A DNA stretch of 64,000 nt from Jatrophihabitans sp. GTDB lineage: Bacteria; Actinomycetota; Actinomycetes; Mycobacteriales; Jatrophihabitantaceae. The stretch spans positions 387 through 64,386 of the forward strand of contig DASXYU010000085.1 of NCBI GenBank assembly GCA_036502295.1. Reading direction: 5' to 3'. Under the pieces are notes generated by a model that was not told the origin of the DNA, made no database searches, and saw only the letters and a list, made by a program, of their open reading frames with translations. Position numbers and translations under genes: made by a program. Below, one piece after another: positions 37,665 to 60,848 of this stretch (positions within the stretch are counted from its first letter, which is position 1; each line of letters starts with the position of its first letter).

Positions 37665-38083
37665 GCGCCCTCTTCCTCGAACGTGAGTGAGATGGAGTTG
37701 ATGCAGTACCGCAGGTCGGTGGGCGTCTCGTAGCCCTCTCCGGCGAAGACGTGCCCCAGGTGGCTGTGACAGTTCGCGCAGATGACTTCCGTGCGAGCCA
37801 TGCCGTGGGAGTAGTCGATGCGCTCGATGACGGAGCCGCCGGCGAGCGGGGTGAAGAAGCTCGGCCAGCCGCAGTGCGAGTCGAACTTGCCGTCGCTGCG
37901 GAAGAGTTCGGAGCCACACGCCCTGCAGCGGTAGACACCGGTGCGGTGATTGTCGGTGTACTCGCCGATGAAGGGAGCTTCGGTGCCTGCCTCGCGAAGC
38001 ACGCGATACTCGCCCGGACTGAGCTGCTCGTGCCACTCGTCCTCTGACTTGCTGACTGTGGGGGCGGGAAGTTGATCAGTCAT
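37661..38083 (-). CDS. msrB: Peptide-methionine (R)-S-oxide reductase
   Basis: Zn CxxC pairs (CRACGSELF, CANCHSHLGHVF), GWPSF, and catalytic RYCINS. Confidence 0.93.
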   Translation of the reverse strand: MTDQLPAPTVSKSEDEWHEQLSPGEYRVLREAGTEAPFIGEYTDNHRTGVYRCRACGSELFRSDGKFDSHCGWPSFFTPLAGGSVIERIDYSHGMARTEVICANCHSHLGHVFAGEGYETPTDLRYCINSISLTFEEEGA

Positions 38084-38146
38084 GTTCTTCACGGTACGCC
38101 GCGAGTGGTGGCGCGTGGGTGCTCGTCCTCGATTACCGTGACTGCC

Positions 38147-39172
38147 ATGAGCCCCTCTCCGGCGGTGGAGATTCAGGTCGGTGCGCGGACGGTTCGCGTC
38201 AGCAACCCCGACAGGGTCTACTTCAGCGCGCGGGGCGAGACGAAGCTCGACCTCGTCAACTACTACCTCGCCGTCGGCGACGGAATCGTGCGAGCGCTGC
38301 GCGAGCGGCCCTGCATGCTTCACCGCTACCCGGAGGGCGTCGACGGCGAGAAGATCTACCAGAAGCGACTGCCCAAAGGCGCGCCCGACTGGGTCGAGAC
38401 CGTGGAGGTCTCGTTTCCGTCAGGACGGACCGCGGATGAACTGTGCGTGATCGAACTCGCCGACGTGATCTGGGCGGTGCAGATGTCGACCGTCGAGTTC
38501 CACCCGTGGCACACGCGGCGCAGCGCGGTGGAGCGTCCTGATGAACTTCGCATCGACCTCGATCCGGGTGTTGGTGCTGGGTTCGCCGAGACGCAACAGG
38601 TCGCGGCCGTCGTGCACGAGATGCTCGACGAGCTCGGTGCCGTCGGATGGCCCAAGACCTCGGGCTCACGCGGCGTGCACGTCTACGTGCGGATCGAGCC
38701 GACCTACGGCTTCCGCGAGGTGCGGCGTGCGGCACTTGCCTTCGCTCGCGAGGTGGAGCGGCGGATGCCAACGCTGGTGACCTCGCAGTGGTGGAAGGAA
38801 CAACGCCCCGACGGCACCGTCTTCGTCGACTACAACCAGAACACCAAGGACAGGACGATCGCCGCGGCGTACTCGGTGCGCGGCAAGCCGTGGGGACCGG
38901 TATCGGCGCCGGTGACGTGGGACGAACTGCCCGAGGTGGCGATCGAGGACTTCACCATCGCGACGATGCCCGCCCGGTTCGCCGAGCTGGGCGATCTGCA
39001 CGCGGGGATCGACAAGGCGGTGTGGTCGATCGAGCCGCTGCTCGAGTGGGCGGACCGTGACGAGCACGACCATGGCCTCGGTGATGCGCCATACCCGCCG
39101 AACTTCCCGAAGATGGAAGGCGAACCGCTGCGGGTACAGCCGAGTCGCGCACGATCGAAGCCAGATAGCTGA
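38147..39172 (+). CDS. Stand-alone LigD-type primase-polymerase (Prim-Pol / PolDom) protein
   Basis: VRVSNPDRVYF, KLDLVNYY, YQKRLP, VEFHPW, ELRIDLDP, SGSRGVHVYV - archaeo-eukaryotic primase motifs of NHEJ/BER polymerases. Confidence 0.88.
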   Translation: MSPSPAVEIQVGARTVRVSNPDRVYFSARGETKLDLVNYYLAVGDGIVRALRERPCMLHRYPEGVDGEKIYQKRLPKGAPDWVETVEVSFPSGRTADELCVIELADVIWAVQMSTVEFHPWHTRRSAVERPDELRIDLDPGVGAGFAETQQVAAVVHEMLDELGAVGWPKTSGSRGVHVYVRIEPTYGFREVRRAALAFAREVERRMPTLVTSQWWKEQRPDGTVFVDYNQNTKDRTIAAAYSVRGKPWGPVSAPVTWDELPEVAIEDFTIATMPARFAELGDLHAGIDKAVWSIEPLLEWADRDEHDHGLGDAPYPPNFPKMEGEPLRVQPSRARSKPDS

Positions 39173-44338: not shown

Positions 44339-45418
44339 TCAGCGGGCGAGCCCCGGGACGATCTCGGCGAGGTCGAAGTCGACCGGTTGTTCCAGTTGGT
44401 CGTAGGTACAGCTGCGCGGGTCGCGGTCGGGGCGCCACCGGTTGAACTGCGCGGTGTGCCTGAAGCGCCGCCCCTCCATGTGGTCATAGCGGACCTCGAC
44501 GACACGTTCAGGACGCAGCGGGACGAAGGAGAGGTCCCTGCCGTTGTTCCAACGCGAGCCGGCCCCCGACCGGGGCGTGCGGGTGCCCTGCTCGACTTCG
44601 GCCCAGTTCCACGGATGGTCGGCGAACTCGGCGAGCAGCGGTTGGAGCTCGACGAAGAGTTCTCGCCTCGTCGCCAACGGAAAGGCGCCGATAACGCCGA
44701 CGGAGGCGAGACTGCCGTCCTCGGCGTAGAGGCCGAGGAGCAGGGAGCCGATCGCATCGGTCTCGTTGCGATAGAGGCGGTAACCGGCGACGACGCAGTC
44801 GGCCGTGCGCTCGTGCTTGAGCTTGAACATCACGCGCTTGTCGGGCTGGTACGTGCCGTCGAGGGGCTTGGCGATGATGCCATCGAGTCCGGCGCCCTCG
44901 AATTCGGTGAACCAGCGTCGCGCTTCGTCCTCGTCGCGGGTCGCGGGGGTGAGGTGCACCGACTTGCCAGGCGAGGCGAGGACGGACTCAAGCGTGGCGC
45001 GGCGTTCGCCGAACGGGCGCATTGTCAGATCTTCGTCGCCGAGGGCGAGCAGATCGAAGGCGATGAACTGCGTCGGGGTCTTCTCGGCGAGCATCTGCAC
45101 GCGTGAATCGGCCGGATGAATGCGCTCCTGCAGCGCTTCGAAGTCGAGACCGGTGGAGGTCGCGATGACGATCTCACCGTCGAGGACGCAGCGAGGTGGT
45201 GTCTCGGCGCGGATCGCCTCGACGAGTTCCGGAAAGTAGCGCGTCAGTGGCTTCTCATTGCGGCTGCCGAGCTCGACATCGTTGCCGTCCCGAAAGATGA
45301 TGCTGCGGAACCCGTCGAATTTCGGCTCATAGTGGTAGGCGCCCGCGGGCAGCTTCTCGAGGCTGGGGATCGCCTTGGCGAGCATCGGGGAGAGCGGCGG
45401 CATCACCGGAAGGTCCAT
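44339..45418 (-). CDS. ligC: ATP-dependent DNA ligase, LigC type
   Basis: Adenylation motif I EPKFDGFR plus downstream nucleotidyltransferase/OB motifs. ATG 45418 is supported by alignment with the two upstream 5' copies and by a GAGG RBS. Confidence 0.9.
   Translation of the reverse strand: MDLPVMPPLSPMLAKAIPSLEKLPAGAYHYEPKFDGFRSIIFRDGNDVELGSRNEKPLTRYFPELVEAIRAETPPRCVLDGEIVIATSTGLDFEALQERIHPADSRVQMLAEKTPTQFIAFDLLALGDEDLTMRPFGERRATLESVLASPGKSVHLTPATRDEDEARRWFTEFEGAGLDGIIAKPLDGTYQPDKRVMFKLKHERTADCVVAGYRLYRNETDAIGSLLLGLYAEDGSLASVGVIGAFPLATRRELFVELQPLLAEFADHPWNWAEVEQGTRTPRSGAGSRWNNGRDLSFVPLRPERVVEVRYDHMEGRRFRHTAQFNRWRPDRDPRSCTYDQLEQPVDFDLAEIVPGLAR
45312..45418 (-). repeat. Direct repeat copy A (ligC codons 1-36) of the 107-nt repeat
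   Basis: By eye, 105/107 nt are identical to 46224-46330 (offset 912 nt). Confidence 0.9.
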
Positions 45419-45435
45419 CGCCTCACGGTATTGCG

Positions 45436-45867
45436 CTACTGCCGCTGAAGCCACAAGGCGAGACTCGGAGTAGTCCACGTGGCGATCCCGGTACCGAGCA
45501 AGTCGTTGTCTTGAGTCCAGATCGCTGCATCGAGCGCTAGGGCACAGGCGACCAAAGGCCAGTCGTCAGGATCGCGAAGCGAACGAGACCGGGCTTCGTC
45601 CTCAAGCGGCGCAAGCACCGCGCTCTCGACGAGCGCGATGTTCGTATCGACGGCGGTCAGGCACAGCTCGCTGAGAGCCGTGGCATCCTGAGTGCCCAAG
45701 CCATGACGCCGACAGAATCCGCTCACGCGACGGGGCAGCTCATGGCGGAACTCACTGTGAGTCTGCTCTGGAAGGAATAGCTCAAGTGCGCCATGGGCGA
45801 GTCGCTCGCGGCCAGCGACTCGCAGCAACTCAGCCAACAGAACGCTTGCATCGACAACCAGTCGCAT
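45436..45867 (-). CDS. PIN-domain toxin (VapC-like)
   Basis: MRLVVDASVLL... with acidic PIN residues (D6, DPDDWPLVA, TQDNDL). ATGA overlap with the upstream antitoxin gene. Confidence 0.85.
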   Translation of the reverse strand: MRLVVDASVLLAELLRVAGRERLAHGALELFLPEQTHSEFRHELPRRVSGFCRRHGLGTQDATALSELCLTAVDTNIALVESAVLAPLEDEARSRSLRDPDDWPLVACALALDAAIWTQDNDLLGTGIATWTTPSLALWLQRQ

Positions 45868-46118
45868 CAGGAGCGGCGCCGTCGTGGCCGGGAGATATCG
45901 GCCGCCACTTCATCCTCGGTCAGTCCGGTGCGCGCGTAGATATCCTCCAACGCGGCCCCGAGGCGTCCAAGCGCCTCATGTCCGGACGGGCGATCCATCG
46001 CGTGAACTGGAACGTAGAAACCAACAGGAGTGCCGTGCCGTTCCACCACGAGCGTCTCGCCACCTGCGAGCAGCGTTGTGGCGTGATCCTTAAAGTCGCG
46101 AACACCTACGTGCTTCAT
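45867..46118 (-). CDS. Phd/YefM-type antitoxin
   Basis: MKHVGVRDFKDHATTLLAGGETLVVERHGTPVGFYVP is a typical Phd N-terminus. GGAGGAGG RBS present. Confidence 0.85.
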   Translation of the reverse strand: MKHVGVRDFKDHATTLLAGGETLVVERHGTPVGFYVPVHAMDRPSGHEALGRLGAALEDIYARTGLTEDEVAADISRPRRRRS

Positions 46119-46207
46119 GACGCACCTCCTCCGGTCGTCGGGCGATCGTTATGGCTACCAGTGTAGTCACAAGATTCGCTTCTATGCCGTTCGAAAGCGG
46201 AGCACCG

Positions 46208-46330
46208 TCAACAGCGCCGAAAGCCGTCGAATTTCGGCTCATAGTGGTAGGCGCCCGCAGGCAGCTTCTCGAGGCTGGGGATCGCCTTGGCGAGCATCGG
46301 GGAGAGCGGCGACATCACCGGAAGGTCCAT
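46208..46330 (-). pseudogene. Displaced ligC 5' fragment, copy B (40 codons, ends FRRC*)
   Basis: MDLPVMSPLSPMLAKAIPSLEKLPAGAYHYEPKFDGFRRC*. Near-identical to ligC codons 1-36. The RBS is lost (GAGG becomes GTCG). Confidence 0.9.
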
Positions 46331-46377
46331 GACGACACGGTAGGCGATTGCATACGGGGCCGATGAGTTGCGGAGAA

Positions 46378-46394
46378 GCGCTACGATGTAGCGC
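46378..46394 (+). promoter_or_regulatory. Perfect 7-bp inverted repeat abutting the antitoxin start codon
   Basis: GCGCTAC-GAT-GTAGCGC lies immediately 5' of ATG 46395. Candidate autoregulation operator or translation-occluding hairpin. Confidence 0.4.
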
Positions 46395-46817
46395 ATGACT
46401 AGTCCATTGTCGATCAGGTTCGACAAAGCGCTGTTGGAGCGACTTCGTCGGCGGGCGGTCATCCAGGACTCGACTCCATCGGGCTTGGCGCAGCGGCTCG
46501 TGGATGAGGGTCTGCGCGCTCAGGAACATCCCGGCATCGTGTTCAAGGACGGTCCTTCTGGTCGTCGGGCGGCGCTGGTGGCGGGACCAGACGTCTGGGA
46601 GGTTGTCGCCGCGGTCGGCGGCTCCGGTGTGAAGGATGAAAGGCGGGCCGTGACGGTCGTCTCCCAAGAGCTCTCCCTATCAGCGGGACAGGTTCGCCTC
46701 GCGCTGGACTATTACGGTGCATACTCCGAGGAGATTGACGCGCAGATCGCGGAGAACCAACTCGCGGTGACTGAAGCGCTGGCTGCCTTTCGGGCACGGC
46801 AGCGGCTACTTGCGTGA
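46395..46817 (+). CDS. RHH + DUF433-like putative antitoxin
   Basis: N-terminal CopG-like IRFDKALLERLRRRA and a C-terminal DUF433-like pattern (HPGIVFKDGPSGRRAALVAGPDVWEVV...LSAGQVRLALDYY). Confidence 0.7.
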   Translation: MTSPLSIRFDKALLERLRRRAVIQDSTPSGLAQRLVDEGLRAQEHPGIVFKDGPSGRRAALVAGPDVWEVVAAVGGSGVKDERRAVTVVSQELSLSAGQVRLALDYYGAYSEEIDAQIAENQLAVTEALAAFRARQRLLA

Positions 46818-47176
46818 CGGTCAGACTGCTGCTTGACGAACACTTCTCCGAAGTCATTGCCGAGCGCCTGCGTCAACTTGGGCACGACGTTGTCGCGGTT
46901 GTTGCCGACCCGTCCTTGCGTGCTCAGCCTGACGCTGAGGTCTATCGATGGGCAGCGGTAGAAGGACGTCGGGTTGTGACCGAGAACGTCAAGGACTACC
47001 GCCCGTTGCTGCTCGGCGCGTACGAGAATCACGACCCGGTGGCGCCGTTGCTGCTTGTCGCGTCAGGGAGATTTCTGCGAGGGGGCCGCCGCGCATCCGC
47101 GGTCGTCTCGGCGCTGGAGAAGTGGCTAACCCGAACCAGCGCCGGTAGTCGCCCTTACGAGGATTGGCTGATCTGA
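46814..47176 (+). CDS. DUF5615-family PIN-like putative toxin
   Basis: The start overlaps the antitoxin stop. VRLLLDEHFSEVIAERLRQLGHDVV is a typical DUF5615 N-terminus. Confidence 0.75.
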   Translation: MTVRLLLDEHFSEVIAERLRQLGHDVVAVVADPSLRAQPDAEVYRWAAVEGRRVVTENVKDYRPLLLGAYENHDPVAPLLLVASGRFLRGGRRASAVVSALEKWLTRTSAGSRPYEDWLI

Positions 47177-47190
47177 AGCTCGCCGAATAC

Positions 47191-47310
47191 CTACAGGCAA
47201 CAGCGCCGAAAGTCGTCCCACTTGGCTTCGAAGTGGAACTCGCCTTTCGGCAGCCTCTCGATGCTGGCAACAGGCTTCGCCAGCATCGGCTTGATCGGCG
47301 GCATCACTGG
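47191..47310 (-). pseudogene. Diverged ligase 5' fragment, copy C (39 codons, ends FRRCCL*)
   Basis: V-DLPVMPPIKPMLAKPVASIERLPKGEFHFEAKWDDFRRCCL*. Motif I is degenerated (KWDDFR). GAGGA RBS retained. Confidence 0.8.
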
Positions 47311-47430
47311 CAAGTCCACGTCCTCAACGCTATTCGCCAGGGACTGCTCGCAGTACGTGAAGCGCTGGCAGGGCGAATACGGCGTGTCGCCCTGCCAGCG
47401 CTTCACGAGCGAGTGAGTCGGTGGTTGCGG

Positions 47431-47865
47431 TTACTCCGACTCCGAGGATGAGGTCGGCTGACCACATACGTGCTGGTGGATCTCGCGGGTCAGCTCGGCG
47501 ATCATCTTGGTGAGTTCGGTGTTGTTCTTCAGCTCGAGCTCGTTCGCGACGAAATCGTGGTCGGCCTTCTTCTGCTGGAACTCCGCTTGCCGGTTCTGGC
47601 CGATCATGACGAAGGTCGAGAGGAAGATCGCTTCGAGCGACACGATGAGCGTGAGCTTGGGCCAGGGGTCGCTCTCCACGAGAAGCATCCAGACCACGAA
47701 AGCAATGACGTGGACGTAGACGAACGCCATGGAACCAGCGAACTTGGTGATCCCATCGGCGACGCGAAGCTGCACATCGGCAGAACGCTTCTCTGCAATG
47801 GCAAGCACACTCGGGTGGTGAGGAGGAGTAGCGGCGCCCGGGAGCGCGTCAGGGGTGACAGTCAT
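47431..47865 (-). CDS. DUF1003-domain membrane protein
   Basis: Two TM helices followed by the QNRQAEFQQKKADHDFVANELELK pattern typical of DUF1003. Confidence 0.8.
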   Translation of the reverse strand: MTVTPDALPGAATPPHHPSVLAIAEKRSADVQLRVADGITKFAGSMAFVYVHVIAFVVWMLLVESDPWPKLTLIVSLEAIFLSTFVMIGQNRQAEFQQKKADHDFVANELELKNNTELTKMIAELTREIHQHVCGQPTSSSESE

Positions 47866-47976
47866 AGGACCATCGCACCACTGATTCTTCCGCGCCGACG
47901 TGTCTTGCCCAGAGCCTGTGGCGGGGCCATGCTTGCCCCTTGAGGCGGCATTGCCACTGTTTCGGGGAGGGACGCG

Positions 47977-49107
47977 ATGGGTGCCCGACCTGTTGATCTT
48001 GTCGAACGCTCGTTGCAGTATGTGGCAGATCGTGTCGCCGCCGGGCCCGACCGCGACGCGATCGTCAGCGACGAGGTACGTGCGTCATGGCAGCGGTGCG
48101 CCACGAGCGGACTGATACCGGACCGCATTCGCGCGCGGTACGAGCCCGATGTCGACGATGCCAGTCGACTGCGCTGGGCCGCCGAACCGGTGATGGCCGC
48201 CGTCAATGCCGATCTACCGGATATACCGGTGGCGCTGCTGCTCAGTGATCGGCGCACCCACATGGTGGCGCGCTGGGCGCCCACGAGCCGCACCGCGATG
48301 TTCATGGACTCCTCGGGCGCCGCGCCCGGGTTCATCTGCGACGAGCTGAGCATCGGCACCAACTCGATCGGGCTCGCGGCCCACATACGGGGACCAGCCG
48401 TCGTGCACAGCTATGAACACTTCGCCGACAGCCTGAGCCATCTCACCTGCGCGGCCCGCGCCGTGACCGACCCGGCGACCGGAGAACTTCTCGGCGTGAT
48501 CAGCATGGTCTCCGCCGACCCTCGCCACGGCGCGACCGCGCCCGCGCTGGTCGGGCGCATCGTTGACGAGACCGAGGCGCGGCTGTTCAGAGAGTCCGGC
48601 GCCCGCGCGATGATCCTCAACGACGCGTTTCTGGGGGCCCGCCGCCGAGCCAAGGTGCCGATTGTCGCCATCGATGCCCAGACGATGTTCGTGAATGCTG
48701 CGGGCAGCCGATTGGTGGCGCCTGCTGATCGACCGGTGCTCTGGGACTGGGCGCGACGCGTGCTGCGGCAGGGCAGTACCCAACACCAACTGCTCGTCCT
48801 GCCGTCAGGGGAGTGGACCGCCCGCTGCACGCCGATCCTCGATGGGGCAGGCATCCTCGGCGCGATCCTCTGGTTCGGCAGCGCGGACGAGGGACGCGCC
48901 GATGTCGACGCAGCCGGATCGTGGTCGACGCTGACCGCCTCCGAACGAGCTGTCGCCGAGCAGGTCGCTGCCGGCCTCACGAACCGCGAGATCGCCGCGA
49001 ACCTGTACGTCTCGCCGCATACGGTCGACTATCACCTACGGCACGTCTTTCAGAAGTTGCGGGTCAGCTCACGTGTCGACGTCGCACGCCTCGCACAGTT
49101 CGAATGA
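47977..49107 (+). CDS. LuxR-family transcriptional regulator with N-terminal GAF-like sensor
   Basis: C-terminal HTH LTASERAVAEQVAAGLTNREIAANLYVSPHTVDYHLRHVFQKL. GGGAGGGA RBS present. Confidence 0.85.
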   Translation: MGARPVDLVERSLQYVADRVAAGPDRDAIVSDEVRASWQRCATSGLIPDRIRARYEPDVDDASRLRWAAEPVMAAVNADLPDIPVALLLSDRRTHMVARWAPTSRTAMFMDSSGAAPGFICDELSIGTNSIGLAAHIRGPAVVHSYEHFADSLSHLTCAARAVTDPATGELLGVISMVSADPRHGATAPALVGRIVDETEARLFRESGARAMILNDAFLGARRRAKVPIVAIDAQTMFVNAAGSRLVAPADRPVLWDWARRVLRQGSTQHQLLVLPSGEWTARCTPILDGAGILGAILWFGSADEGRADVDAAGSWSTLTASERAVAEQVAAGLTNREIAANLYVSPHTVDYHLRHVFQKLRVSSRVDVARLAQFE

Positions 49108-49161
49108 GGACTACGCGTTCACGTGGGGTGCCATGACGGACGACCGTCCTAACGTCGCGAC

Positions 49162-49959
49162 ATGACTACTCCGACCCCCGTGTTGTTCATCCACGGCCTC
49201 TGGTTGCACGCGACATCGTGGGGCCCGTGGCTGGATCTCTTTGCAGAAGCCGGCTATGACGCCACGGCTCCAGGATGGCCCGGCGATCCCGCGACCGTGC
49301 TGGAGGCGCGTGACAACTCAGAAGCCATGGCCGGCCACGGCATCGACGACGTCGTGGAGCATTACGCGAAGTTGATCGCCGAGCTGGGTGCCAAGCCGAT
49401 TCTGGTGGGGCACTCCTTCGGGGGCCTGATCGCCCAGAAGCTGCTCGGGCAGGATCTCGCCGCGGCCGCCGTGGCCATCGACGCAGCGCAGATCAAGGGC
49501 GTGCTGCCGTTACCGCTGTCGGCTCTGCGAGCGACCCTTCCGGTGTTCAAGAACCCGGCCAACCGGAGCCGGACAGTAAGCCTCACAGCGGAGCAGTTCC
49601 GCTTCGCTTTCGGCAACGCCATTCCGGCCGAAGAATCCGATGCCCTCTTCGGGCAGTGGGCGATACCGGCACCGGGCAAACCGCTGTTCGAGGCGGCGGC
49701 CGCGAACTTCAACCCGCATTCGCCTGCCAAGGTCGATACCGGCAACTCCGGCCGAGGTCCGCTGCTGTTGGTCATGGGCGGCCAGGATCACACGGTTCCG
49801 GAGACGGTCACCAAGGCGACGCTCAAGCAGTACCGCCACAGCGAGGCGACTACCGACATCCTCGAGTTCGCTGATCGCGCTCACTCGCTGACGATCGACC
49901 ACGGCTGGCGCGACGTCGCGGACGCCTCGCTCAGCTGGCTGAAGGCTCAAGGACTGTGA
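49162..49959 (+). CDS. Alpha/beta hydrolase
   Basis: Nucleophile elbow VGHSFGG, with a C-terminal His in the DRAHSLT region. Confidence 0.85.
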   Translation: MTTPTPVLFIHGLWLHATSWGPWLDLFAEAGYDATAPGWPGDPATVLEARDNSEAMAGHGIDDVVEHYAKLIAELGAKPILVGHSFGGLIAQKLLGQDLAAAAVAIDAAQIKGVLPLPLSALRATLPVFKNPANRSRTVSLTAEQFRFAFGNAIPAEESDALFGQWAIPAPGKPLFEAAAANFNPHSPAKVDTGNSGRGPLLLVMGGQDHTVPETVTKATLKQYRHSEATTDILEFADRAHSLTIDHGWRDVADASLSWLKAQGL

Positions 49960-49969
49960 GCTAGCGGTC

Positions 49970-50609
49970 ATGGATCTTCATCTCGCGGGGAAGACCGCGG
50001 TGGTCACCGGTGCCAGCAAGGGCATCGGCCTTGCCATCACACGCTCGCTGGCCGCCGAAGGCGTCCGGGTCCTCGCCGGTGCGCTCAACGGGAGCGCCGA
50101 ATTGGACGTCCTCGCCGACCAGGCCGACGTCCATCCCGTCCTGGTCGATCTGAGCACGCCGGAGGGACCGTCGGCCCTCATCGACGAAGCGGTCCGCCGC
50201 TTCGACGGCATCGACATCCTCGTCAACAACGTGGGTGCCGTCCGCCCCAGACTCGGCGGATTCCTCGCCCTCACCGAGGAAGAGTGGCAGTGGGCGATGA
50301 CCCTCAACTTCTTCTCCGCCGTCCGCGCACTGCGTGCCGCGCTACGGCATCTGGCCACCCGGCCGGGCGCCTCGGTGGTGACGATCAGTTCGGTGAATGC
50401 GTTCCTTCCCGACCCGACGGTGATCGATTACAGCCACCGGCGACGCTCCTGACGCAGTAGTCCAGCATGCTGCCGCCGATGCCTCCACCGGGCGCTTCAC
50501 CTACCCCCAGGAGGTGGCCGACCTCGTCCTGTTCCTGGCCAGCGCCCGCGCCGGCAACATCACCGGAAGCGACTTCGTCATCGATGGCGGACTCATCAAG
50601 ACCCTCTGA
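49970..50609 (+). pseudogene. SDR-family oxidoreductase disrupted by an internal deletion/frameshift
   Basis: The N-terminal 160 aa (VTGASKGIGLA...SSVNAF...DYS) stop at 50452, directly after the Tyr of YxxxK. The C-terminus (GRFTYPQEVADLVLFLASARAGNITGSDFVIDGGLIKTL*) continues in another frame to 50609. About 110 nt are missing relative to a normal SDR. Confidence 0.8.
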
Positions 50610-50749
50610 GATTCCAGCCGAGATCTGTATCTGCTGAGAGCGGATCCGGCGGCAACGCTGATACCCGGCCATGCCGCTCGGGCAGCGCCGGCGCGTGACA
50701 GTTAGGCTCGCCGTGTCCGCCCACGCTTGATGACACCGACGGGACAGTT

Positions 50750-51787
50750 GTGTACAGAGGTTCGCGCCGCTCTTCGGCGCTTGTTGTCCTGACCGCCGCC
50801 GCCGCAGTCACCTTGGGTGCATGCTCCTCGAGTTCCGGGTCGTCCCCGACGCAGTCGTCGAGCGCCCCGTCGACCACGCAGTCCTCCACCGCTGCCCAAT
50901 CGCCCTCGCCGAGCGGCTCGTCCTCGGGCGACGCCCCCGTCGTTGCAAAGTCGGGTGTGACGGTCACCGGCGCGTTCGGGTCCACGCCGACGGTGACAGT
51001 TCCCTCCACCACCGCACCGAAGGCGCTCACCGAGGAAACCTTGGTCACAGGGACGGGTGCCGCGGTCGCCGCCGGCGACACCCTCGTCGCGAACTACGTT
51101 GGCGAGACCTGGGCCAGCAAGCCGAACGTCTTCGACAGCTCGTTCTCCCGCGGCGAGCCGGCCGGCTTCGTCATCGGTGAGGGACAGGTCATCCCGGGCT
51201 GGGACAAGACGCTGGTGGGGCAGAAGCTCGGCTCCCGGATGCTGCTCACCATCCCGCCCGCCGATGGCTACGGCACCGGCGGAAACAGCGACGCCGGCAT
51301 CGCAGGCACTGACACGCTGATCTTCGTCGTCGATCTCATCGACGTCTACAAGCCCGACGCGTCGGCGCCCGGAACCGTCGACAGCAACGTCCCGGCCACC
51401 GGCTGGCCGACGATCACGAACGTCCCCGCGAAGGCGCCGGTGATTGCCGGCGTCGCGGGCGTCAAGGCCCCCAGCGCGCCGACGTCGAAGCTGCTCGTGA
51501 AGGGCAGCGGCGCCAAGATCGACACCGCCAAGACGCTCGTCCTGCAGCTGGTCCAGACCGACATCGCCACCGGCAAGCAGACCCAGTCCACATGGGGCCA
51601 AGCACCGCAGACGGTTCCCGCCGCGAGCGTGCTGCAGGTGGCTGACGCCCTCACCGGCCAGTCCGTCGGAGCCCGCGCAGTCGTCCTTCTGCCGGCGGAA
51701 GCAGCGGTGGCGGCGACCTCTACGAGCGCTGCGGTGCCGGCCTCCGCGGCGGAGGTCCTCGTCATCGATGTCGTCGGCCAGTTCTGA
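50750..51787 (+). CDS. FKBP-type peptidyl-prolyl isomerase lipoprotein with C-terminal extension
   Basis: Lipobox TLGAC, then an FKBP core (VANYVGETW...FDSSFSRGEPAGFVIGEGQVIPGWDKTLVGQKLGSRMLL). Confidence 0.85.
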   Translation: MYRGSRRSSALVVLTAAAAVTLGACSSSSGSSPTQSSSAPSTTQSSTAAQSPSPSGSSSGDAPVVAKSGVTVTGAFGSTPTVTVPSTTAPKALTEETLVTGTGAAVAAGDTLVANYVGETWASKPNVFDSSFSRGEPAGFVIGEGQVIPGWDKTLVGQKLGSRMLLTIPPADGYGTGGNSDAGIAGTDTLIFVVDLIDVYKPDASAPGTVDSNVPATGWPTITNVPAKAPVIAGVAGVKAPSAPTSKLLVKGSGAKIDTAKTLVLQLVQTDIATGKQTQSTWGQAPQTVPAASVLQVADALTGQSVGARAVVLLPAEAAVAATSTSAAVPASAAEVLVIDVVGQF

Positions 51788-51826
51788 GCGATCGGTCCGA
51801 CACGCGTCGGCGGGACTGAGGACGGC

Positions 51827-53062
51827 CTAGTCTCCGAGCGCGTCGAGGCGGCCGGCCAAGAACCGGCGCTCGACCTCGTTCTCGGTCAGCAGAAGTGCCT
51901 CCTGGTAGGCGAGCCGCGCCTCGTCGGTCCGTCCCAGCCGCAGCAGGAAGTCGGCACGGGAGGCAGGCAGGTAGCCGTAACCGGCGAGCTGCGGCTCGAT
52001 GGCGAGCGCGTCCAGAGCCGCCAGCCCCTCGGCGGGCCCATATGCGAAGCCGACCGCCACGCCCCGGTTGAGGGCCACGACCGGCGACGGCCAGAGCTGA
52101 AGCAGGGCATCGTAAAGCCCGACGACCTCGAGCCAATCGGTCATCTCCCAGCTCGGCGCCTGCGCGTGGACCGCCGCGATCGCGGCCTGCAGCGCATAGC
52201 GACTCGGCGGCCGCACCCGCAGCGACTCACGTGCCAGCGCAACGCCTTCGGTGATCTGGTCACGGTCCCAGCGCGTGCGGTCCTGCTGGGCCAGCAGAAG
52301 CAGCTCGCCGGTGGCGTCGTCCTGACGCGTGACGCGGCGGGAGTCGGTGAGCAGGATCAAGGCGAGCAACCCCGCGACGTCCGGGTGGCTCGGCAGTAAC
52401 TGGCGGAGCATCCTCGCCAGGTCCAATGCCCGCGCCACCAGGTCACCGCGGACGAGTGCCTCACCGGAGGAGGCCGTGTGCCCGGCCGTGAAGATCAAGT
52501 GCACGGTTTCGAGAATCGCCCGGATGCGGGCCGGCAGTTCGTCCAGCGACGGGACACGGTACGGGATGCGTGCCGCGGAGATCTTCTTCTTGGCGCGGGT
52601 GATGCGGGCGGCCATCGTCGGCTCGCTCACCAGGAACGCCCGCGCGACCTCTGCGGTGGTGAGACCGCAGACCAGCCGCAGGGTGAGGGCGACCTGGGTC
52701 TCGGTGCTCAGCGCCGGGTGGCAGCAGGTGCAGATGAGCCGCAACCGGTCGTCGGGAAAGCCGTTCACCGGATCCTGCTCGGGCACGGCCTCATCCATCA
52801 CGAGTTCGGGCATCGCCCGGCGGAAGAGCGCATCGCGACGCATCACGTCGAGGGCCCGGTGCCTGGCCGTCGTCGTCAGCCACGCACCCGGTCGGGCGGG
52901 AATCCCGTCCTCCCACGTGGTGAGAGCGCGGGCGTAGGCATCCTGCACGCACTCCTCGGCGAGGTCGAGGTCACGCGTGAGGCGCACCGTCGCGGCGAGG
53001 ACGAATGCCCACTCGCGCCGGTGCGCCTCCGCGATCGCAGTCGCGACCTCAGCAGTGCTCAG
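51827..53062 (-). CDS. ECF-type RNA polymerase sigma factor with long C-terminal (TPR-like) extension
   Basis: Sigma-2 region (DLAEECVQDAYARALTTW), sigma-4 HTH (GLTTAEVARAFLVSEPTMAARITRAKKKI). Start uncertain: the first canonical start is GTG 52987, but the conserved N-terminal segment lies upstream and can only begin at CTG 53062. Confidence 0.8.
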   Translation of the reverse strand: MSTAEVATAIAEAHRREWAFVLAATVRLTRDLDLAEECVQDAYARALTTWEDGIPARPGAWLTTTARHRALDVMRRDALFRRAMPELVMDEAVPEQDPVNGFPDDRLRLICTCCHPALSTETQVALTLRLVCGLTTAEVARAFLVSEPTMAARITRAKKKISAARIPYRVPSLDELPARIRAILETVHLIFTAGHTASSGEALVRGDLVARALDLARMLRQLLPSHPDVAGLLALILLTDSRRVTRQDDATGELLLLAQQDRTRWDRDQITEGVALARESLRVRPPSRYALQAAIAAVHAQAPSWEMTDWLEVVGLYDALLQLWPSPVVALNRGVAVGFAYGPAEGLAALDALAIEPQLAGYGYLPASRADFLLRLGRTDEARLAYQEALLLTENEVERRFLAGRLDALGD

Positions 53063-53400
53063 CTGTTGAACACCATGATCGGACGCACCTCGAGGCCGCC
53101 GGCGACCACGGGAACCTGCTTGGCGATCGCGATCGCCTCATCGAGATCAGCCGCCTCGACGAGGTAGTAGCCGCCGAGCGCCTCCTTCGACTCCACGAAC
53201 GGACCGTCGGTGACGCTGAACCCGCCAGCACCGTCGGACCGGATCGAGGTCGCCGTGCTCACGCTCTGCAGCGCGTTGCCGCCGGCGATGGTGTCGGCGT
53301 TCTTCTCACCGAACGTGTTGTGCCCCTGCATCAGGTAGTCATACGACTCCGGCTTCATCGCTGACTCGTCGTCGTAAATGAGGATCAGGAACTGAGACAT
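53059..53400 (-). CDS. YciI-family protein
   Basis: MSQFLILIYDDES...DGPFVESKEALGGYYLVEAADLDEAIAIAK. GGGAG RBS upstream of ATG 53400. Confidence 0.88.
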   Translation of the reverse strand: MSQFLILIYDDESAMKPESYDYLMQGHNTFGEKNADTIAGGNALQSVSTATSIRSDGAGGFSVTDGPFVESKEALGGYYLVEAADLDEAIAIAKQVPVVAGGLEVRPIMVFNS

Positions 53401-53545
53401 AGCTACTCCCAAGGCAAGTGAGTGTCAGAAAGAGAGGAGCGGCCCGGATGGGTCGTCCATCAATCCGACGAACGGTGACGGCCCGGATCGACACTCTCCG
53501 ATGGAAAGCCTAGGTGCGCGGCGGAGCCGAAGGAACGTCTCAGGC

Positions 53546-53962
53546 TCAGCGGTAACGAAACCCGTCGAGGAACCGCCGGAAGAGCCCGCCGGTGGGCGGC
53601 AAGGGAGCGGCCGGCGGGGGAGCGGTAGGACGTTGCCGGGCGATCGGCTGGTTGTAGTCGGTGCGCGCGACCGCATCGATGGTCTGCGCCTCGTCGAAGC
53701 CTTCCGAGTCGGGGATCGACGGGACGAACCCCACCAGCATCCCGTCGCGCATCACCTGCGCCTCGAGCCCCGCGGTGCCATCCGTGTCCCACACCGCCTC
53801 GCGGCCGTCGCCGAGGGCGATCCGGATGCCGAACTGATAGACGCCTGCGCGCTCCAGCTGTGCGTCGATGCCGCGCTCCCGCAGCGAATCGACGACGTGC
53901 CGCGCTCTGTTCTCCTCCATCGGCCCCACGGTAGCGGCCGTCGATAGGAGGTGGTTCAGCAC
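53546..53962 (-). CDS. Hypothetical protein with Pro-rich C-terminus
   Basis: Coding-like composition. Start is either GTG 53962 (3 nt after the upstream stop) or ATG 53920. Confidence 0.55.
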   Translation of the reverse strand: MLNHLLSTAATVGPMEENRARHVVDSLRERGIDAQLERAGVYQFGIRIALGDGREAVWDTDGTAGLEAQVMRDGMLVGFVPSIPDSEGFDEAQTIDAVARTDYNQPIARQRPTAPPPAAPLPPTGGLFRRFLDGFRYR

Positions 53963-53965
53963 GGC

Positions 53966-54715
53966 CTACTCGGAGGCGACGCCGACGCGGTAGCGGCAGA
54001 ACAGCCCACCGTCCTCTTCGAGCAGTCCGGTGAGGGTCAACGGCAGGGGATCGCCCTGCCAGGGGAGTCCCTGCGAGATCCGGGGACCGCCAGGGCCGGA
54101 GAGCAGCGGGCTTATGCTGAGACAGAGCTCATCGACCAATCCGGCGGCGGCGAACTCGGAGAAGAGGTGCGGCCCGCCTTCGCTGAGTATCCGACGATGC
54201 CCGCGCTCCCGCAGCGCGGCGACAGCAACACGCAGGTCGACGACGTCCTCGCCACAGATCACCACATCGGCCACGGCGTCAAGGGTCGCCCGCGCTTCGT
54301 CCGGCGCCGAGGCCACTGTCAGGACGACCGTCCGCGCCGCGGGCGCGGCGTCGGCGAAGAGTTCAGAGGTGGGGTCGAGGTCGAGTGACCGGGTGACGAC
54401 GGCGATCGGCGGCACCGCCTGGTAACCATGGGCGAGGCGGATCTCCTGCCGGGCCGCGCTCGGGCGCGACGGTCGGTAGTTCTCGGCCCGCACCGTTCCT
54501 GCGCCGACGAGGATGACGTCGCCGAGATCGCGCAGCGTGGCGAAGACCGTGTTGTCGCCGGGCGTCTGCAGTCCCTTCGAGAGACCCTCCGCTGTAGCGG
54601 CGCCGTCGACGCTGCTGACGAAGTTCATGCGCAGTCCGCCCGGCTCGCTCCAGCCGGCGGCGTAGAACGCATGCAGGTCGACGCTGCCGGTCGCGTCGGG
54701 GATGAGGGAGCGCAT
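53966..54715 (-). CDS. Pyrimidine reductase-family protein (RibD C-terminal / DHFR-like domain)
   Basis: NFVSSVDGAATAEG...VILVGAGTVRAENY...ILSEGGPHLF pattern. Confidence 0.82.
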   Translation of the reverse strand: MRSLIPDATGSVDLHAFYAAGWSEPGGLRMNFVSSVDGAATAEGLSKGLQTPGDNTVFATLRDLGDVILVGAGTVRAENYRPSRPSAARQEIRLAHGYQAVPPIAVVTRSLDLDPTSELFADAAPAARTVVLTVASAPDEARATLDAVADVVICGEDVVDLRVAVAALRERGHRRILSEGGPHLFSEFAAAGLVDELCLSISPLLSGPGGPRISQGLPWQGDPLPLTLTGLLEEDGGLFCRYRVGVASE

Positions 54716-54783
54716 CGCCTCAACGTACCGGCATCAGGGCGCGTGCCCACCGCGACTCCAGCGCTGGTTAGGCTCGCACGATC

Positions 54784-55797
54784 ATGACTCTCGAACGCCT
54801 CGTCGACCGCACACCGGTCGTCGCACCGGAGGCGCTCATCGAAGGACTGGTGCCGCCACCTCTGTTCTCCGCGGTCCGGTTCGACACCTACCGCCCCAAC
54901 CCCGGCGAGCCGACCCAGGCCGCGGCGGTGACGGCGCTCGAGGAGTTCGCCGCGCGGATCAACACGCCCTCCGGACGTGGCGGACTGTTCCGCAAGAAGA
55001 GCGACCCGCAGCCGCGCGGCGTTTACCTCGACGGCGGATTCGGCGTCGGCAAGACGCACCTGCTCGCCTCGCTGTGGCACGCGGCGGAGGGGCCGAAGGC
55101 GTACGCCACCTTCGTGGAGCTCACCCACCTCGCCGGGGCACTCGGCTTCGCCCAGGTTGTGCAGGCGCTGGCGCCGATGAGGCTGCTGGCGATCGACGAG
55201 TTCGAACTCGACGACCCGGGCGACACCGTCCTGGTCTCTACATTGCTGGCGCACCTGTCCGAGCGCGGGATCGCGCTGGCGGCCACCTCGAACACGCTTC
55301 CCGACCGGCTCGGGGAGGAACGCTTCGCCACCGCCGACTTCATGCGCGAGATCCAGGGCCTCGCCGCACACTTCACCTCGGTGCGGGTGGACGGTCCCGA
55401 CTATCGCCACAGGGGCCTGCCATCGGCACCGCTGCCGCGCAGCGACGTCGACGTCCGCGAGGCGGTTCTCGCCAGGCCCGGCGCGACCCTTGACGACTTC
55501 GACGAACTGATCCACCACCTCGGGCGGCTACACCCGTCGCGCTATGGCGCACTGGTCGACGGTGTTCCGGCGGTCGGCCTCATCGGCCTGCGGCAGGCTC
55601 CGGATCAAGCGGTGGCGCTGCGCCTCGTCGTCCTCATCGACCGCCTCTACGACCGCCAGATTCCGGTGATCGCCAGCGGCGTGCCCGTCGACAAACTCTT
55701 CGACGCGCACATGCTCGCCGGCGGGTATCGCAAGAAGTACCGGCGCGCCGTCAGCCGTCTCGTCGCGCTGACGGTCTCAGCCCCAGAACGTGACTGA
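54784..55797 (+). CDS. zapE: ZapE/AFG1-family ATPase
   Basis: Walker A GGFGVGKTHL, Walker B LLAIDEFELDD, and a typical ZapE N-terminal region (FDTYRPNP). Confidence 0.88.
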   Translation: MTLERLVDRTPVVAPEALIEGLVPPPLFSAVRFDTYRPNPGEPTQAAAVTALEEFAARINTPSGRGGLFRKKSDPQPRGVYLDGGFGVGKTHLLASLWHAAEGPKAYATFVELTHLAGALGFAQVVQALAPMRLLAIDEFELDDPGDTVLVSTLLAHLSERGIALAATSNTLPDRLGEERFATADFMREIQGLAAHFTSVRVDGPDYRHRGLPSAPLPRSDVDVREAVLARPGATLDDFDELIHHLGRLHPSRYGALVDGVPAVGLIGLRQAPDQAVALRLVVLIDRLYDRQIPVIASGVPVDKLFDAHMLAGGYRKKYRRAVSRLVALTVSAPERD

Positions 55798-58161: not shown

Positions 58162-58217
58162 GTTAAGAGAGAGCGGTGAGGGCGCGGTTAGGCACGCTCA
58201 CGGCCTTGCCAGATTTG

Positions 58218-59909
58218 TCAGTTTGGTCGCCGCACGATGACGGCGGACTCGCCCGGTAGCGCGCCGTCCCTGACCCGCCCACCACCGGTGGCGAGGACGA
58301 CCGTGCCGTCCTGGGCGAACTCGACCTCACCGCCGGAGAGGTTGGCGATCACGGCGAACGCGCCGCGATGCACATGCAGGACGCGGTCGGCGACGTCGAA
58401 GGCAACGCGAATCCGTCGTAGGTCCGGATCGCGCAGGTCCGGCTCCGCGGCGCGCAGCGCGATCAGCTCGCGGTAGAGCGCGAGCATCTCTGCGTGGGCC
58501 GGCTCCTCGCGCTCGTTCCAGCGCAGGATCGCCTCCTCGTAGGCGCGCGGATCCTGCGGATCGATCATCGCCGCGACGTCCCAGCCGTGCTCCGCGAACT
58601 CACGTAGCCTTCCGGCGCCGACCGCCGCGGCAAGTTCGGGTTCGGGGTGCGAGGTGAAGAACGGCCAGCGCGTCGAGGCCGCCCACTCCTCGCCCATCCA
58701 GAGCATCGGCGTGAACGGCGAGGTGAGTAGCAGCACCGCGCCGACCTTCACCAGTCCGGGAGAGGTGAGCTCCGGCAGCCGGTCGCCGACGGCGCGATTG
58801 CCGACCTGGTCGTGGTTCTGCAAGCAGACGACGAAGCGGCTGCCCGGCGTCGTCGGGTCGACCGGCCGTCCCCAGTTCTCGCCGCGGAAGGAGGAGTAGC
58901 TGCCGTCGTGGAGGAAGGCGCGCGTGAGCACCTTCGGTAGCGCTTCCGTATCGGCGAAGTCCTTGTAGTAGCCGCGGGTCTCGCCGGTGAGGGCGACGTG
59001 CAGCGCATGGTGCACGTCGTCGTCCCATTGCGCGTCCAGCCCCCACTCGTCCACGACGCGCTGGACGTCGTTGAGGTCGGACTCGGCGATGAGGGTCACC
59101 GTCCGGCCACGCTCCTCGGCGAAGGCGTGCACCTCGTCAGCGAGGACGGCGAGGACGTGGCGCGGTGAGCTGTCACCGATCGCATGTACCGCATCGAGGC
59201 GCAGTCCGTCGACGTGAAAGTCGCGGATCCACATGAGCGCGTTGTCGACGACGAAACGTCGGACCTCCGGCTGCTCGACGTTGACGAGATCGCCCCACGT
59301 GTTGGTCCCGTCCTTGAGATAGGGACCGAAGCGGGGAAGGTAGTTCCCGGACGGGCCGAGATGGTTGTAGACCACGTCGAGGATCACCGCGAGGCCGAGC
59401 GCGTGCGCGGCGTCGACGAAGCGTTTCAACGCATCGGGACCGCCGTACGCGGCATGCACCGCATACCAGTCGACTCCGTCGTATCCCCAGTTCCAGATTC
59501 CGTTGAAAGCGTTCAGCGGTAGCAGCTCAACATGTGTGATGCCGAGGTCGACCAGGTCACCGAGGTGGCCGATCGCGGAGTCGAGCGTGGCGCCCGGAGT
59601 GAAGGTGCCGATGTGCAACTCGTAGACGACGGCGCCCTCCCACGGGCGGCCGCGCCATTCCGTGTCGCTCCAGTCGTAGAGCGACTGGTCATAGGCACGG
59701 CTCGTGCCGTGTACACCCGCAGGCTGCCACCGCGAGGCAGGGTCGGGCAGCGCGTCGGTTCCGTCGAGGACGAAGGCATAGTCGGCTCCGTGCGGCAGCT
59801 CCGGGCCGATCCACCAGCCCTGCGGGTCGGAGGTCAGCACCACGTCCTCACCGTTGCTGCGGAGCGCGACGGTCGAAGCGCGAGGTGCCCACACCCTGAT
59901 CTGCTGCAT
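58218..59909 (-). CDS. treZ: Malto-oligosyltrehalose trehalohydrolase
   Basis: MQQIRVWAP..., GH13 motifs DVVYNHLGPSGNY, GLRLDAVHAI, AESDLND. ATG 59909 chosen. The 313-codon upstream extension is antisense to ppk2 and was rejected. Confidence 0.92.
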   Translation of the reverse strand: MQQIRVWAPRASTVALRSNGEDVVLTSDPQGWWIGPELPHGADYAFVLDGTDALPDPASRWQPAGVHGTSRAYDQSLYDWSDTEWRGRPWEGAVVYELHIGTFTPGATLDSAIGHLGDLVDLGITHVELLPLNAFNGIWNWGYDGVDWYAVHAAYGGPDALKRFVDAAHALGLAVILDVVYNHLGPSGNYLPRFGPYLKDGTNTWGDLVNVEQPEVRRFVVDNALMWIRDFHVDGLRLDAVHAIGDSSPRHVLAVLADEVHAFAEERGRTVTLIAESDLNDVQRVVDEWGLDAQWDDDVHHALHVALTGETRGYYKDFADTEALPKVLTRAFLHDGSYSSFRGENWGRPVDPTTPGSRFVVCLQNHDQVGNRAVGDRLPELTSPGLVKVGAVLLLTSPFTPMLWMGEEWAASTRWPFFTSHPEPELAAAVGAGRLREFAEHGWDVAAMIDPQDPRAYEEAILRWNEREEPAHAEMLALYRELIALRAAEPDLRDPDLRRIRVAFDVADRVLHVHRGAFAVIANLSGGEVEFAQDGTVVLATGGGRVRDGALPGESAVIVRRPN

Positions 59910-59948
59910 GCCTAGAGCCTTCCACTGGGAGGCCCTAGATTTACGGAT

Positions 59949-60791: not shown

Positions 60792-60794
60792 TGC

Positions 60795-60848
60795 TTGATC
60801 AACACGCTCGTATCGTTCGGATCTGAACGATACGAGCGTGTTGATCAA
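60795..60848. terminator. 54-nt perfect palindrome (24-bp arms, 6-nt loop) between convergent ppk2 and treY
   Basis: TTGATCAACACGCTCGTATCGTTC-GGATCT-GAACGATACGAGCGTGTTGATCAA. It begins 3 nt after the ppk2 TAG and contains the treY stop codon (TCA on the plus strand, 60845-60847). Confidence 0.75.

Follow-up and report, generated by a model that had tools for sequence, protein, structure and literature searches.

How did a DNA ligase gene come to carry its own 5′ end three times in a row, with a different toxin–antitoxin (TA) pair between each copy and the next? The question is raised by ligC in the window analysed here, a 64-kb stretch of DNA that is part of a 65 kb NCBI contig from a Jatrophihabitans sp. 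metagenome-assembled genome (MAG). Comparison with other loci revealed a fixed insertion point, replacement 5′ ends, elements bearing a large serine recombinase (LSR) at the same point, and the empty, single-cassette and two-cassette states of the site. The array is likely to consist of two integrase-less TA mini-elements, each flanked by attachment (att) sites, which accreted at the attB of a ligC-targeting LSR family through at least two site-specific integrations.

Three copies of the ligC 5′ end and two cassettes

The ligase gene, the copies of its 5′ end and the motif that follows two of them are located in the window as follows.

44339–45418, minus strand: ligC, an intact ATP-dependent DNA ligase gene (359 aa), whose first 38 codons are copy A.
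45305–45430, minus strand: copy A, a 12-nt leader with a GAGG ribosome-binding site (RBS) plus codons 1–38, fused to the ligC body; attR-like (P arm / B′), with the putative crossover TT at 45309–45310.
46217–46342, minus strand: copy B, the displaced ligC 5′ fragment of cassette 1; TT at 46221–46222.
47206–47319, minus strand: copy C, the outermost displaced ligC 5′ fragment, attL-like, with a GTG start and the GAGG RBS kept.
46209–46222, minus strand: junction motif TTTCGGCGCTGTTG after copy B, the left (P′-type) end of cassette 2.
47198–47211, minus strand: junction motif TTTCGGCGCTGTTG after copy C, the left (P′-type) end of cassette 1.

The ligase itself is whole. DNA_ligase_A_M (E = 3e-45) and DNA_ligase_A_C (E = 4e-11) are both matched over their full length in Pfam, so that adenylation and OB domains are present, and motif I (KxDGxR) is intact, reading KFDGFR in copy A. 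Its closest homologues are LigC proteins of Jatrophihabitans, Frankiales and Mycobacterium, with at most 79% amino acid identity. The first 38 codons occur three times on the same strand, at 45305–45418 (A), 46217–46330 (B) and 47206–47319 (C). A repeat search returned them as one direct-repeat family of three copies (45306–45430; 46218–46342, 94% over 125 nt; 47207–47331, 67%), spaced by 912 and 989 nt, and the 38-residue peptides matched the window at these three places only (tblastn, E = 1e-21 to 1e-23). Copies A and B agree at 105 of 107 positions (45312–45418 against 46224–46330) and at 117 of 126 over 45305–45430, the repeat extending through 12 nt of leader upstream of the ATG; for A and C the count is 78 of 114.

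After motif I, copies B and C leave the ligase sequence and run into TTTCGGCGCTGTTG, a non-ligase 14-mer in ligC sense that has just two matches in the 64 kb, even when two mismatches are allowed. The frames then stop (FRRC-stop in B, FRRCCL-stop in C). Copy B reads ...KFDGFRRC-stop, carries the change P7S and has lost the GAGG RBS. Copy C reads ...KWDDFRRCCL-stop, with the Gly of motif I changed to Asp; its GTG start and KWDDFR fit a stub released from selection, and it is probably the ligC 5′ end from before the first insertion. Among the full-length LigC proteins aligned by eye, the N-terminus of copy C is closest to that of P0006 (MLAKPVASLEKLP...), which has no TA genes upstream.

Between the copies lie the two cassettes with their TA genes.

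45309–46220, minus strand: cassette 2, 912 nt from TT to TT, comprising a P′ end, a Phd-like antitoxin gene, a PIN_2 toxin gene, a leader and ligC 5′ fragment A.
45436–45867, minus strand: PIN_2-family toxin, 143 aa (Pfam PIN_2, E = 1.9e-28).
45867–46118, minus strand: putative antitoxin, 83 aa, whose stop overlaps the toxin start by 1 nt.
46221–47209, minus strand: cassette 1, 989 nt from TT to TT, comprising a P′ end, DUF5615 toxin and RHH-like antitoxin genes on the plus strand, a 64-nt divergent spacer and ligC 5′ fragment B.
46395–46817, plus strand: putative antitoxin, 140 aa, overlapping the toxin gene by 4 nt.
46814–47176, plus strand: DUF5615 (PIN-like) toxin, 120 aa (Pfam DUF5615, E = 3e-12).

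Each pair consists of two small overlapping genes (by 1 and 4 nt, respectively), one with a recognised toxin domain, as expected of type II TA systems. For the 143-residue toxin, the match to the NCBIfam PIN toxin model TIGR00305 (E = 5e-4) stays under the cutoff of that model. The 83-residue protein has no Pfam or NCBIfam match, but its N-terminus looks Phd/YefM-like by eye; the 140-residue protein gives a sub-threshold RHH_5 match only (E = 0.0096) and no DUF433 match. The TA operon of cassette 2 is co-oriented with ligC, and its toxin stop codon lies 17 nt ahead of the ligC ATG.

No recombinase or transposase domain was detected in the about 50 open reading frames (ORFs) of the window that were scanned with Pfam, and the LSR family described below has no tblastn match in it. 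With no Resolvase plus Recombinase protein encoded in cis, the cassettes do not qualify as autonomous LSR elements. Each unit has a P′-type and a P-type end with two TA genes alone between them, which is the layout of a cis-mobilizable element (CIME).

An earlier note on this DNA had described the tandem 5′ ends, the 912-nt step with 105 of 107 identical positions, the breaks of B and C at motif I followed by stops, the RBS kept in A and C and lost in B, and the absence of any integrase or transposase from the 64 kb. The searches and recounts above bear out each of these points. Its TA pairs hold for the toxins, PIN_2 and DUF5615; its antitoxin labels, Phd for the one and RHH-DUF433 for the other, could not be confirmed.

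Two kinds of recombinase-less array were considered and rejected. An integron cassette array is contradicted by the lack of IntI, attI or any tyrosine recombinase in the window and by boundaries that are ligC coding sequence, not attC hairpins. For a Xer/dif module, there are no Xer/dif-like sites, and the boundaries are again coding sequence. A promoter and terminator scan of the array gave nothing useful, Rfam had no match in the 44–48 kb region, and the DNA of the whole array matched PLSDB plasmids only trivially, through ligase genes.

The ligC site in other genomes

Of 80 LigC loci in GTDB species, most belong to Mycobacterium and the others to Frankiales and Jatrophihabitans MAGs (71–76% amino acid identity); none carries a co-oriented ligC fragment upstream, and these loci represent empty sites. 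At seven of them, a divergent second match was found, which in six cases is a full-length ligC paralogue. The seventh (L069:5823–5930, minus strand), from an Actinomycetota MAG, is a divergent ligC paralogue cut at the same place as the window fragments (...EPKWDGF/LH-stop, GGCTT/TCTTCACTGA, the slash marking the cut). The next 5.9 kb of this locus contain no ligase body or LSR; they hold unknown ORFs, followed by ABC-transporter and DUF4032 genes. The fragment looks like an orphan attL-like scar in a second ligase gene.

Could the array have arisen by decay of tandem ligC paralogues, with the TA genes inserted later? Mycobacterial relatives do have a second, divergent full-length ligC paralogue beside ligC. 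However, all fragments in the three cassette-bearing genomes (see below) end at the same codon with no remnant of a ligase body after it, copies B and C share the non-ligase 14-mer, and the paralogues of relatives, which are of full length and point the other way, do not resemble co-oriented stubs. Full-length tandem ligC paralogues in relatives, which the earlier note had named as the finding that would overturn its model, are not what these genomes show, as the upstream position is either vacant or taken by a divergent paralogue of full length. We consider paralogue decay extremely improbable.

A locus from ENA (L084) shows the single-cassette state. Here, a displaced fragment ending FRRYYR-stop is followed by a cassette with the DUF5615 toxin and the 140-residue protein (89% amino acid identity to its window counterpart), and then by a B-like fragment that is fused to the ligC body and shares 86% nucleotide identity with copy B. 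The cassette-borne fragment thus ends up on ligC. The junction reads TTTCGGCGCTATTACC, and the counterpart of the window 14-mer is TTTCGGCGCTATTA. A JGI locus from a different sample (L085) encodes the same LigC, has an identical toxin region and equals L084 across the stretches compared. In both, the DUF5615 toxin gene carries a 14-nt tandem duplication (CGCGGTCGCCGCGC twice; L084:6190–6235, L085:14545–14590), which frameshifts its last ~25 residues; if one copy is removed, the C-terminus becomes colinear with that of the window toxin.

In the closest LigC proteins, the first ~38 residues are of either a "short" or a "long" type, irrespective of similarity in the rest of the protein. The displaced fragment of L084 is of the short type, and the cassette-borne one of the long type.

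The same design with other cargo is found in a Jatrophihabitantaceae MAG (L083), in which a displaced fragment ending FGRT-stop, a HigB/HTH_3 cassette of ~0.8 kb and ligC follow one another. Just upstream of this displaced fragment and co-oriented with it lies an 83-residue ORF (L083:5851–6102) that matches only the C-terminal part of PIN (profile positions 71–118 of 120), in the same layout as PIN_2 and fragment A in the window. This truncated PIN remnant is probably an older, decayed cassette.

In a Jatrophihabitans MAG (L093), a Phd-like/PIN_2 pair (79% amino acid identity to the window toxin) lies directly upstream of ligC; the contig begins inside the antitoxin gene, so that the outer junction falls outside it. 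This block (L093:1–1795) points towards RibD_C, unlike its counterparts in L083, L084 and the window; it has either been inverted or belongs to another ligC copy. The same genome encodes a 67% PIN_2 relative at another place, with no ligase near it.

These loci supply the empty sites and the one-cassette intermediate that the earlier note had suggested looking for, and, in L084 and L085, one of the window TA pairs beside ligase 5′ fragments elsewhere. Its proposal of serial insertion at one ligC point, each time with a replacement 5′ end, gains from the occurrence of the same junction with different cargo in L083 and L084/L085 and from the empty sites. It also predicts a cassette-borne fragment on the ligC body with the native type displaced upstream, as seen in L084.

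They also bear on the assembly, as a repeat could have been collapsed or duplicated in a MAG. The exact sequence of the window recurs once, in a separate 28 kb JGI contig with 100% identity over 13 kb, and this contig and the 65 kb NCBI contig possibly go back to one common sample, which limits their independence. A stronger argument than the JGI copy is that the same design recurs in other organisms: two different samples each yielded the single-cassette locus, with no difference in the ligC product or the toxin region, and L083 adds a third genome. In addition, copies A, B and C are unlike one another, and each flanks different genes. We therefore give an artefact next to no weight.

Searches with the exact junction pattern returned no match in genome contigs; this pattern is strict, and the L084 junction differs from it at two of the last five specified bases. 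A relaxed pattern returned only L085 from JGI metagenomes, the same organism as L084.

To locate the exchange, attL-, attR-, attP-like and empty attB sites were aligned on the KxD codons. The attL sites of the cassettes and of the LSR-bearing locus L092 read GAC GGN TT T/C and then diverge from ligC, while attR and attB sites read GAC GGN TT C CG(C/G) and continue into ligC; one empty attB (L001) has TTT. The wobble base N tracks the left arm, being C in four of five empty sites and three of four cassette attL sites and G or T in three cassette attR sites, and the base after TT tracks the right arm. From three attL/attR pairs and five empty sites, the exchange is therefore best placed in the TT of the Phe37 codon, a crossover that would have the 2-bp size typical of LSRs. 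Beyond it, the window cassettes share CGGCGCTGTTG and nothing further; at six of the seven sites, whether an LSR is present or not, the P′ arm has TTG or TTA at +10 to +12. Dyad symmetry around the TT is weak by eye.

A large serine recombinase family at the same site

By searching IMG/VR with an alignment of ligC 5′ fragments, we found a phage-like contig (L086) on which a ligC 5′ fragment (MDLPVMPPVKPMLAKAV...EPKWDG-stop) abuts the gene of a 575-aa Resolvase plus Recombinase protein, in divergent orientation. The flanks encode a collagen-like protein, a PIN protein, a DNA methylase (390 viral relatives), a sigma factor, a ParB-like protein, a helicase and a phosphoesterase, and no ligC body occurs within the 10–14 kb read on either side. 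Since both flanks carry genes of mobile-element type and the ligC body is missing, we read this site as an attP. The PIN-domain gene (Pfam PIN, 8667–9047) and a small ORF ahead of it that looks Phd-type together occupy L086:8415–9047, ~2.5 kb from the attP, and LSR-bearing elements of this kind could be the source of the TA cargo.

The 575-aa LSR has 47 homologues with 39–52% identity. In all six contexts read, L086 included, the LSR gene abuts a ligC 5′ piece that is cut in the motif I codons, at the same TT as the cassettes in L086, L089 and L092 and within a few nt of it in L091 and L177. The cassette junctions thus lie at an attB used by LSR-bearing elements. L089 and L090 are attR-like: the LSR gene and a full-length ligC point away from each other, and further downstream comes a TAP-like hydrolase gene, the gene order being that of the window. 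The 5′ fragment fused to ligC in L089 has 56% GC, compared with 71% for the ligC body and 57% for the attP fragment of L086, which argues that the 5′ end of this ligC came from an element. L091 (Nocardioides ultimimeridianus), L092 and L177 (N. humi) have a displaced fragment with an LSR gene within ~40 nt, and are attL-like. A TrwC relaxase is encoded in L092 and L177, the latter also encoding HTH_17 and Fic proteins; we read these three as the attL-like ends of elements resembling integrative and conjugative or integrative and mobilizable elements (ICEs or IMEs). The attR end was not reached in the 10 kb flanks of L092/L176 and L177. The LSR protein had no match at E ≤ 1e-20 among INPHARED phages or PLSDB plasmids, and a search of IMG/VR with the LSR alignment returned the L086 contig only. 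In the literature, we found no paper linking ligC to an integrase attB or serine integrases to ATP-dependent ligase genes.

The earlier note had known of no described mechanism by which TA-only cassettes target and regenerate the 5′ end of a protein gene; an LSR family that is carried on phage-like and relaxase-carrying elements, uses this very site and brings along ligC 5′ ends now offers one. Tandem accretion of integrase-less, att-flanked remnants, too, has been described (PMC5704250).

Does the array need a site-specific recombinase at all? Circular or linear DNA with a TA pair and a 5′ fragment of ligC might enter by RecA-dependent (Campbell-type) recombination, as a circle with a 5′ gene fragment gives the same topology upon integration, and unequal crossing-over could stack two single-cassette alleles. 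The 125-nt A/B repeat, 94–98% identical, would be enough for RecA and looks homogenised. On the other hand, the breaks fall at or within a few nt of one position although the fragments are only 50–70% identical and differ by 4-codon indels, which makes them too diverged for RecA; the same point bounds elements with an LSR directly at the junction; and cassettes of unrelated cargo share 11–14 nt beyond the fragment. Entry without a site-specific recombinase is, in our view, improbable.

Under LSR-mediated integration, the attB would lie in the motif I codons of ligC, and the attP of LSR-family elements would contain a promoter-proximal leader plus the first ~38 ligase codons. Recombination at the Phe37 TT would push the resident 5′ end upstream, where it is left as a dead stub with a nearby stop (attL), and fuse the element-borne 5′ end to the ligC body (attR), so that the ligase stays whole. 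Since the conserved ...EPK(W/F)DG motif has to be encoded by the P arm, the left half of attR would resemble that of attB and the right half would equal it; the site could then be used again, giving a tandem array.

A window unit would be a TA operon with a short P′-type end (..TT TCGGCGCTGTTG..) on one side and, on the other, a P-type end made up of the leader and 38 codons. The LSR that integrated the units, or left them behind, would have acted in trans, from a gene at another place in the genome or on an incoming element. Addiction to the TA pairs would counter loss, including RecA-mediated deletion across the 125-nt A/B repeat, and plausibly accounts for the persistence of the units. ligC would now be expressed from behind the TA operon of cassette 2. 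From the alignments and locus comparisons we infer the TT crossover, the trans-acting LSR, the regeneration of attB and the sequence of events. The order of the two insertions, however, does not follow from the map: cassette 1 first and cassette 2 at attR yields the same map as cassette 2 first and cassette 1 at attL, and the identity data from L084 and L093 pull in opposite directions.

Movement of the units and relation to known systems

Did the TA pairs move as small units, or are they what is left of larger elements? Between the window and L084, cassette 1 with its fragment shares 84–88% nucleotide identity (760/895), compared with 72–76% (3440/4622; z ~6.7) for the flanking ligC body and the TAP hydrolase, CMAS and EamA genes. 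The displaced fragments are of different types (long in the window, short in L084), with 60–70% identity and a 12-nt indel, and the genes upstream of the array differ as well (DUF1003 in the window, FMN_red in L084), while the limits of cassette 1 are the same in the window and in L084/L085. The intact cassettes, namely the two of the window, HigB/HTH_3 of L083 and cassette 1 of L084, measure 0.82–1.0 kb and contain one intact TA operon each, with end spacers of 17–90 nt and no gene debris. These comparisons favour the arrival of cassette 1 as a unit.

The alternative is that full-size phages or ICEs with an LSR integrated and were deleted in situ down to a TA pair and att ends, so that TA-only units never moved. 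This is the standard route to CIMEs (PMC5704250), the LSR-bearing elements at this site do carry toxin-type genes (PIN at 8667–9047 of L086, Fic in L177), decay is visible in the truncated PIN remnant upstream of the displaced fragment in L083, and the L093 relative of cassette 2 looks vertically inherited. Yet the size is 0.82–1.0 kb in each of three different cassettes, all with one intact TA operon, short spacers and no debris, and cassette 1 has equal limits in two genomes with different displaced fragments and upstream genes, besides being about 10 points more similar than its flanks. We regard reduction in situ as rather unlikely.

A further-reaching proposal is that TA-only units of ~0.8–1.0 kb form a class of non-autonomous cassettes. 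Their attP would combine the 5′ fragment of a gene with a short P′ end, and LSRs would capture and shuffle them in trans at a self-regenerating ligC attB, giving an integron-like array. We put this forward tentatively, as a possibility and not as the expected outcome.

Several points weigh against accretion of att-flanked TA units by an LSR. Copies A and B are 98% identical while B and its L084 counterpart are 86% identical, which a simple two-step LSR model does not predict; later gene conversion between A and B is needed as the simplest patch. Canonical LSRs do not recombine attP with attR, and the reuse of attR as attB is a hypothesis on our part. No LSR is encoded within the 64-kb window, and action in trans is assumed. 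The P′ arm of L092 is only similar to those of the cassettes (GCTTGTTG versus GCTGTTG), none of the LSRs read is a cognate match, and the Nocardioides junctions lose ligC homology a few nt earlier. At a resolution of 57 nt, the step in identity from cassette 1 to its flanks is noisy, and it could partly stem from stronger selection on TA genes, in which case a single old insertion, vertically inherited, could explain it. Cassette 2 and its L093 relative share 72–73% nucleotide identity and the host genes 76%, so that this relation looks vertical or ancient. Finally, neither a circular or excised cassette nor a TA cassette beside an LSR was present among the loci read.

Upstream, the array is bordered by two features.

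47356–47407, no strand assigned: inverted repeat of 21 nt, perfect, around a 10-nt loop; it separates DUF1003 from copy C and bounds the array upstream.
47431–47865, minus strand: DUF1003 gene (Pfam DUF1003, E = 5e-16), the chromosomal neighbour upstream of the array.

The inverted repeat has no T-tract and was not called by a consensus terminator scan; it is probably the terminator of DUF1003, factor-independent and of the actinobacterial hairpin-only type.

Further upstream, the RibD_C, AFG1 ATPase and alpha-amylase genes (53966–62941) are common to relatives. The interval between RibD_C and ligC is different in every genome compared (window 47900–53960, L083, L084 and the P0006 contig). In the window, it contains YCII, sigma-70/DUF6596, FKBP, SDR, hydrolase, LuxR-type and DUF1003 genes, in L084 TetR, luciferase-like and FMN_red genes, on the P0006 contig PilZ and GGDEF/EAL genes, and in L083 almost nothing. 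Earlier insertions at the same hotspot may have left this variable interval behind as cargo. On the other side, a LigD_Prim-Pol (primase-polymerase) gene (38072–39172) is located ~5 kb from ligC on the opposite strand, which recalls the LigC–PrimPolC repair pairing described in mycobacteria.

Known systems share single features with the array. CIMEs, of the type related to ICESt1 and ICESt3, keep attL and attR, have no integrase or transfer genes and accrete in tandem (PMC5704250). The window likewise shows integrase-less, att-flanked units stacked at att sites. Classical CIMEs, however, are associated with tyrosine integrases and the 3′ ends of genes or tRNA genes, whereas here the site is a 5′ coding region associated with LSRs, and the window units differ in being just ~0.9–1.0 kb with a TA pair as sole cargo.

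The SCCmec and psi-SCC islands (staphylococcal cassette chromosome) at rlmH (orfX) are driven by the LSR Ccr, occupy a 3′ gene end and keep the gene intact with an overlap of a few codons; psi-SCC elements are recombinase-less, occur in tandem and are bounded by att core repeats. They resemble the array as recombinase-less units stacked at an LSR site in a housekeeping gene that is left intact. At ligC, in contrast, the replaced part lies at the 5′ end and comprises 38 codons plus a leader, TA genes are the sole cargo, the elements reside in Actinomycetota, and the LSR family, by name, is not related to Ccr.

SXT/R391 ICEs insert in the 5′ end of prfC and supply a new promoter and 5′ codons, as autonomous ICEs of ~100 kb with a tyrosine integrase; the 5′-end replacement of a protein gene is the shared feature, but SXT/R391 forms no arrays of mini-cassettes. 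Integron cassettes, including the TA cassettes of chromosomal integrons, and the pdif modules of Acinetobacter are small, promoter-poor or TA-only, recombinase-less, arranged in tandem and moved in trans. The likeness lies in small TA-only modules without a recombinase between recombination sites, although movement in trans is our proposal for the window, and the recombination site there is a piece of a protein-coding gene.

The large serine integrases of phiC31, Bxb1 and A118 have Resolvase and Recombinase domains, with or without a zinc ribbon, and a short intragenic attB, and they normally split the target gene. The ligC family is like them in domain architecture, in a short attB inside a gene and, if the exchange is rightly placed at TT, in a 2-bp crossover, and differs in that a replacement 5′ end of more than 100 nt restores the target gene. 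Serine-recombinase IMEs, too, usually disrupt their target gene (PMC5704250). As far as searched, three aspects appear to be new: the ligC attB with its LSR family, the restoration of a target gene by serine-recombinase elements, and TA-only units of ~1 kb.

The motif I site of ligC, with its crossover probably at TT, would be a new attB/attP system for an LSR family; LSRs with known sites are sought as genome-engineering tools. Repair of the target gene by a 5′ end of more than 100 nt would also permit reuse of the site and thereby the build-up of arrays. Should the TA-only units be mobile as such, few known integrative elements would be smaller, and they would offer a clean case of TA pairs that persist as selfish cargo. 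For the host, each event would swap the promoter and the N-terminus of a ligase that serves as a backup in base excision and non-homologous end joining, and in the window this has placed ligC directly behind an autoregulated TA operon.

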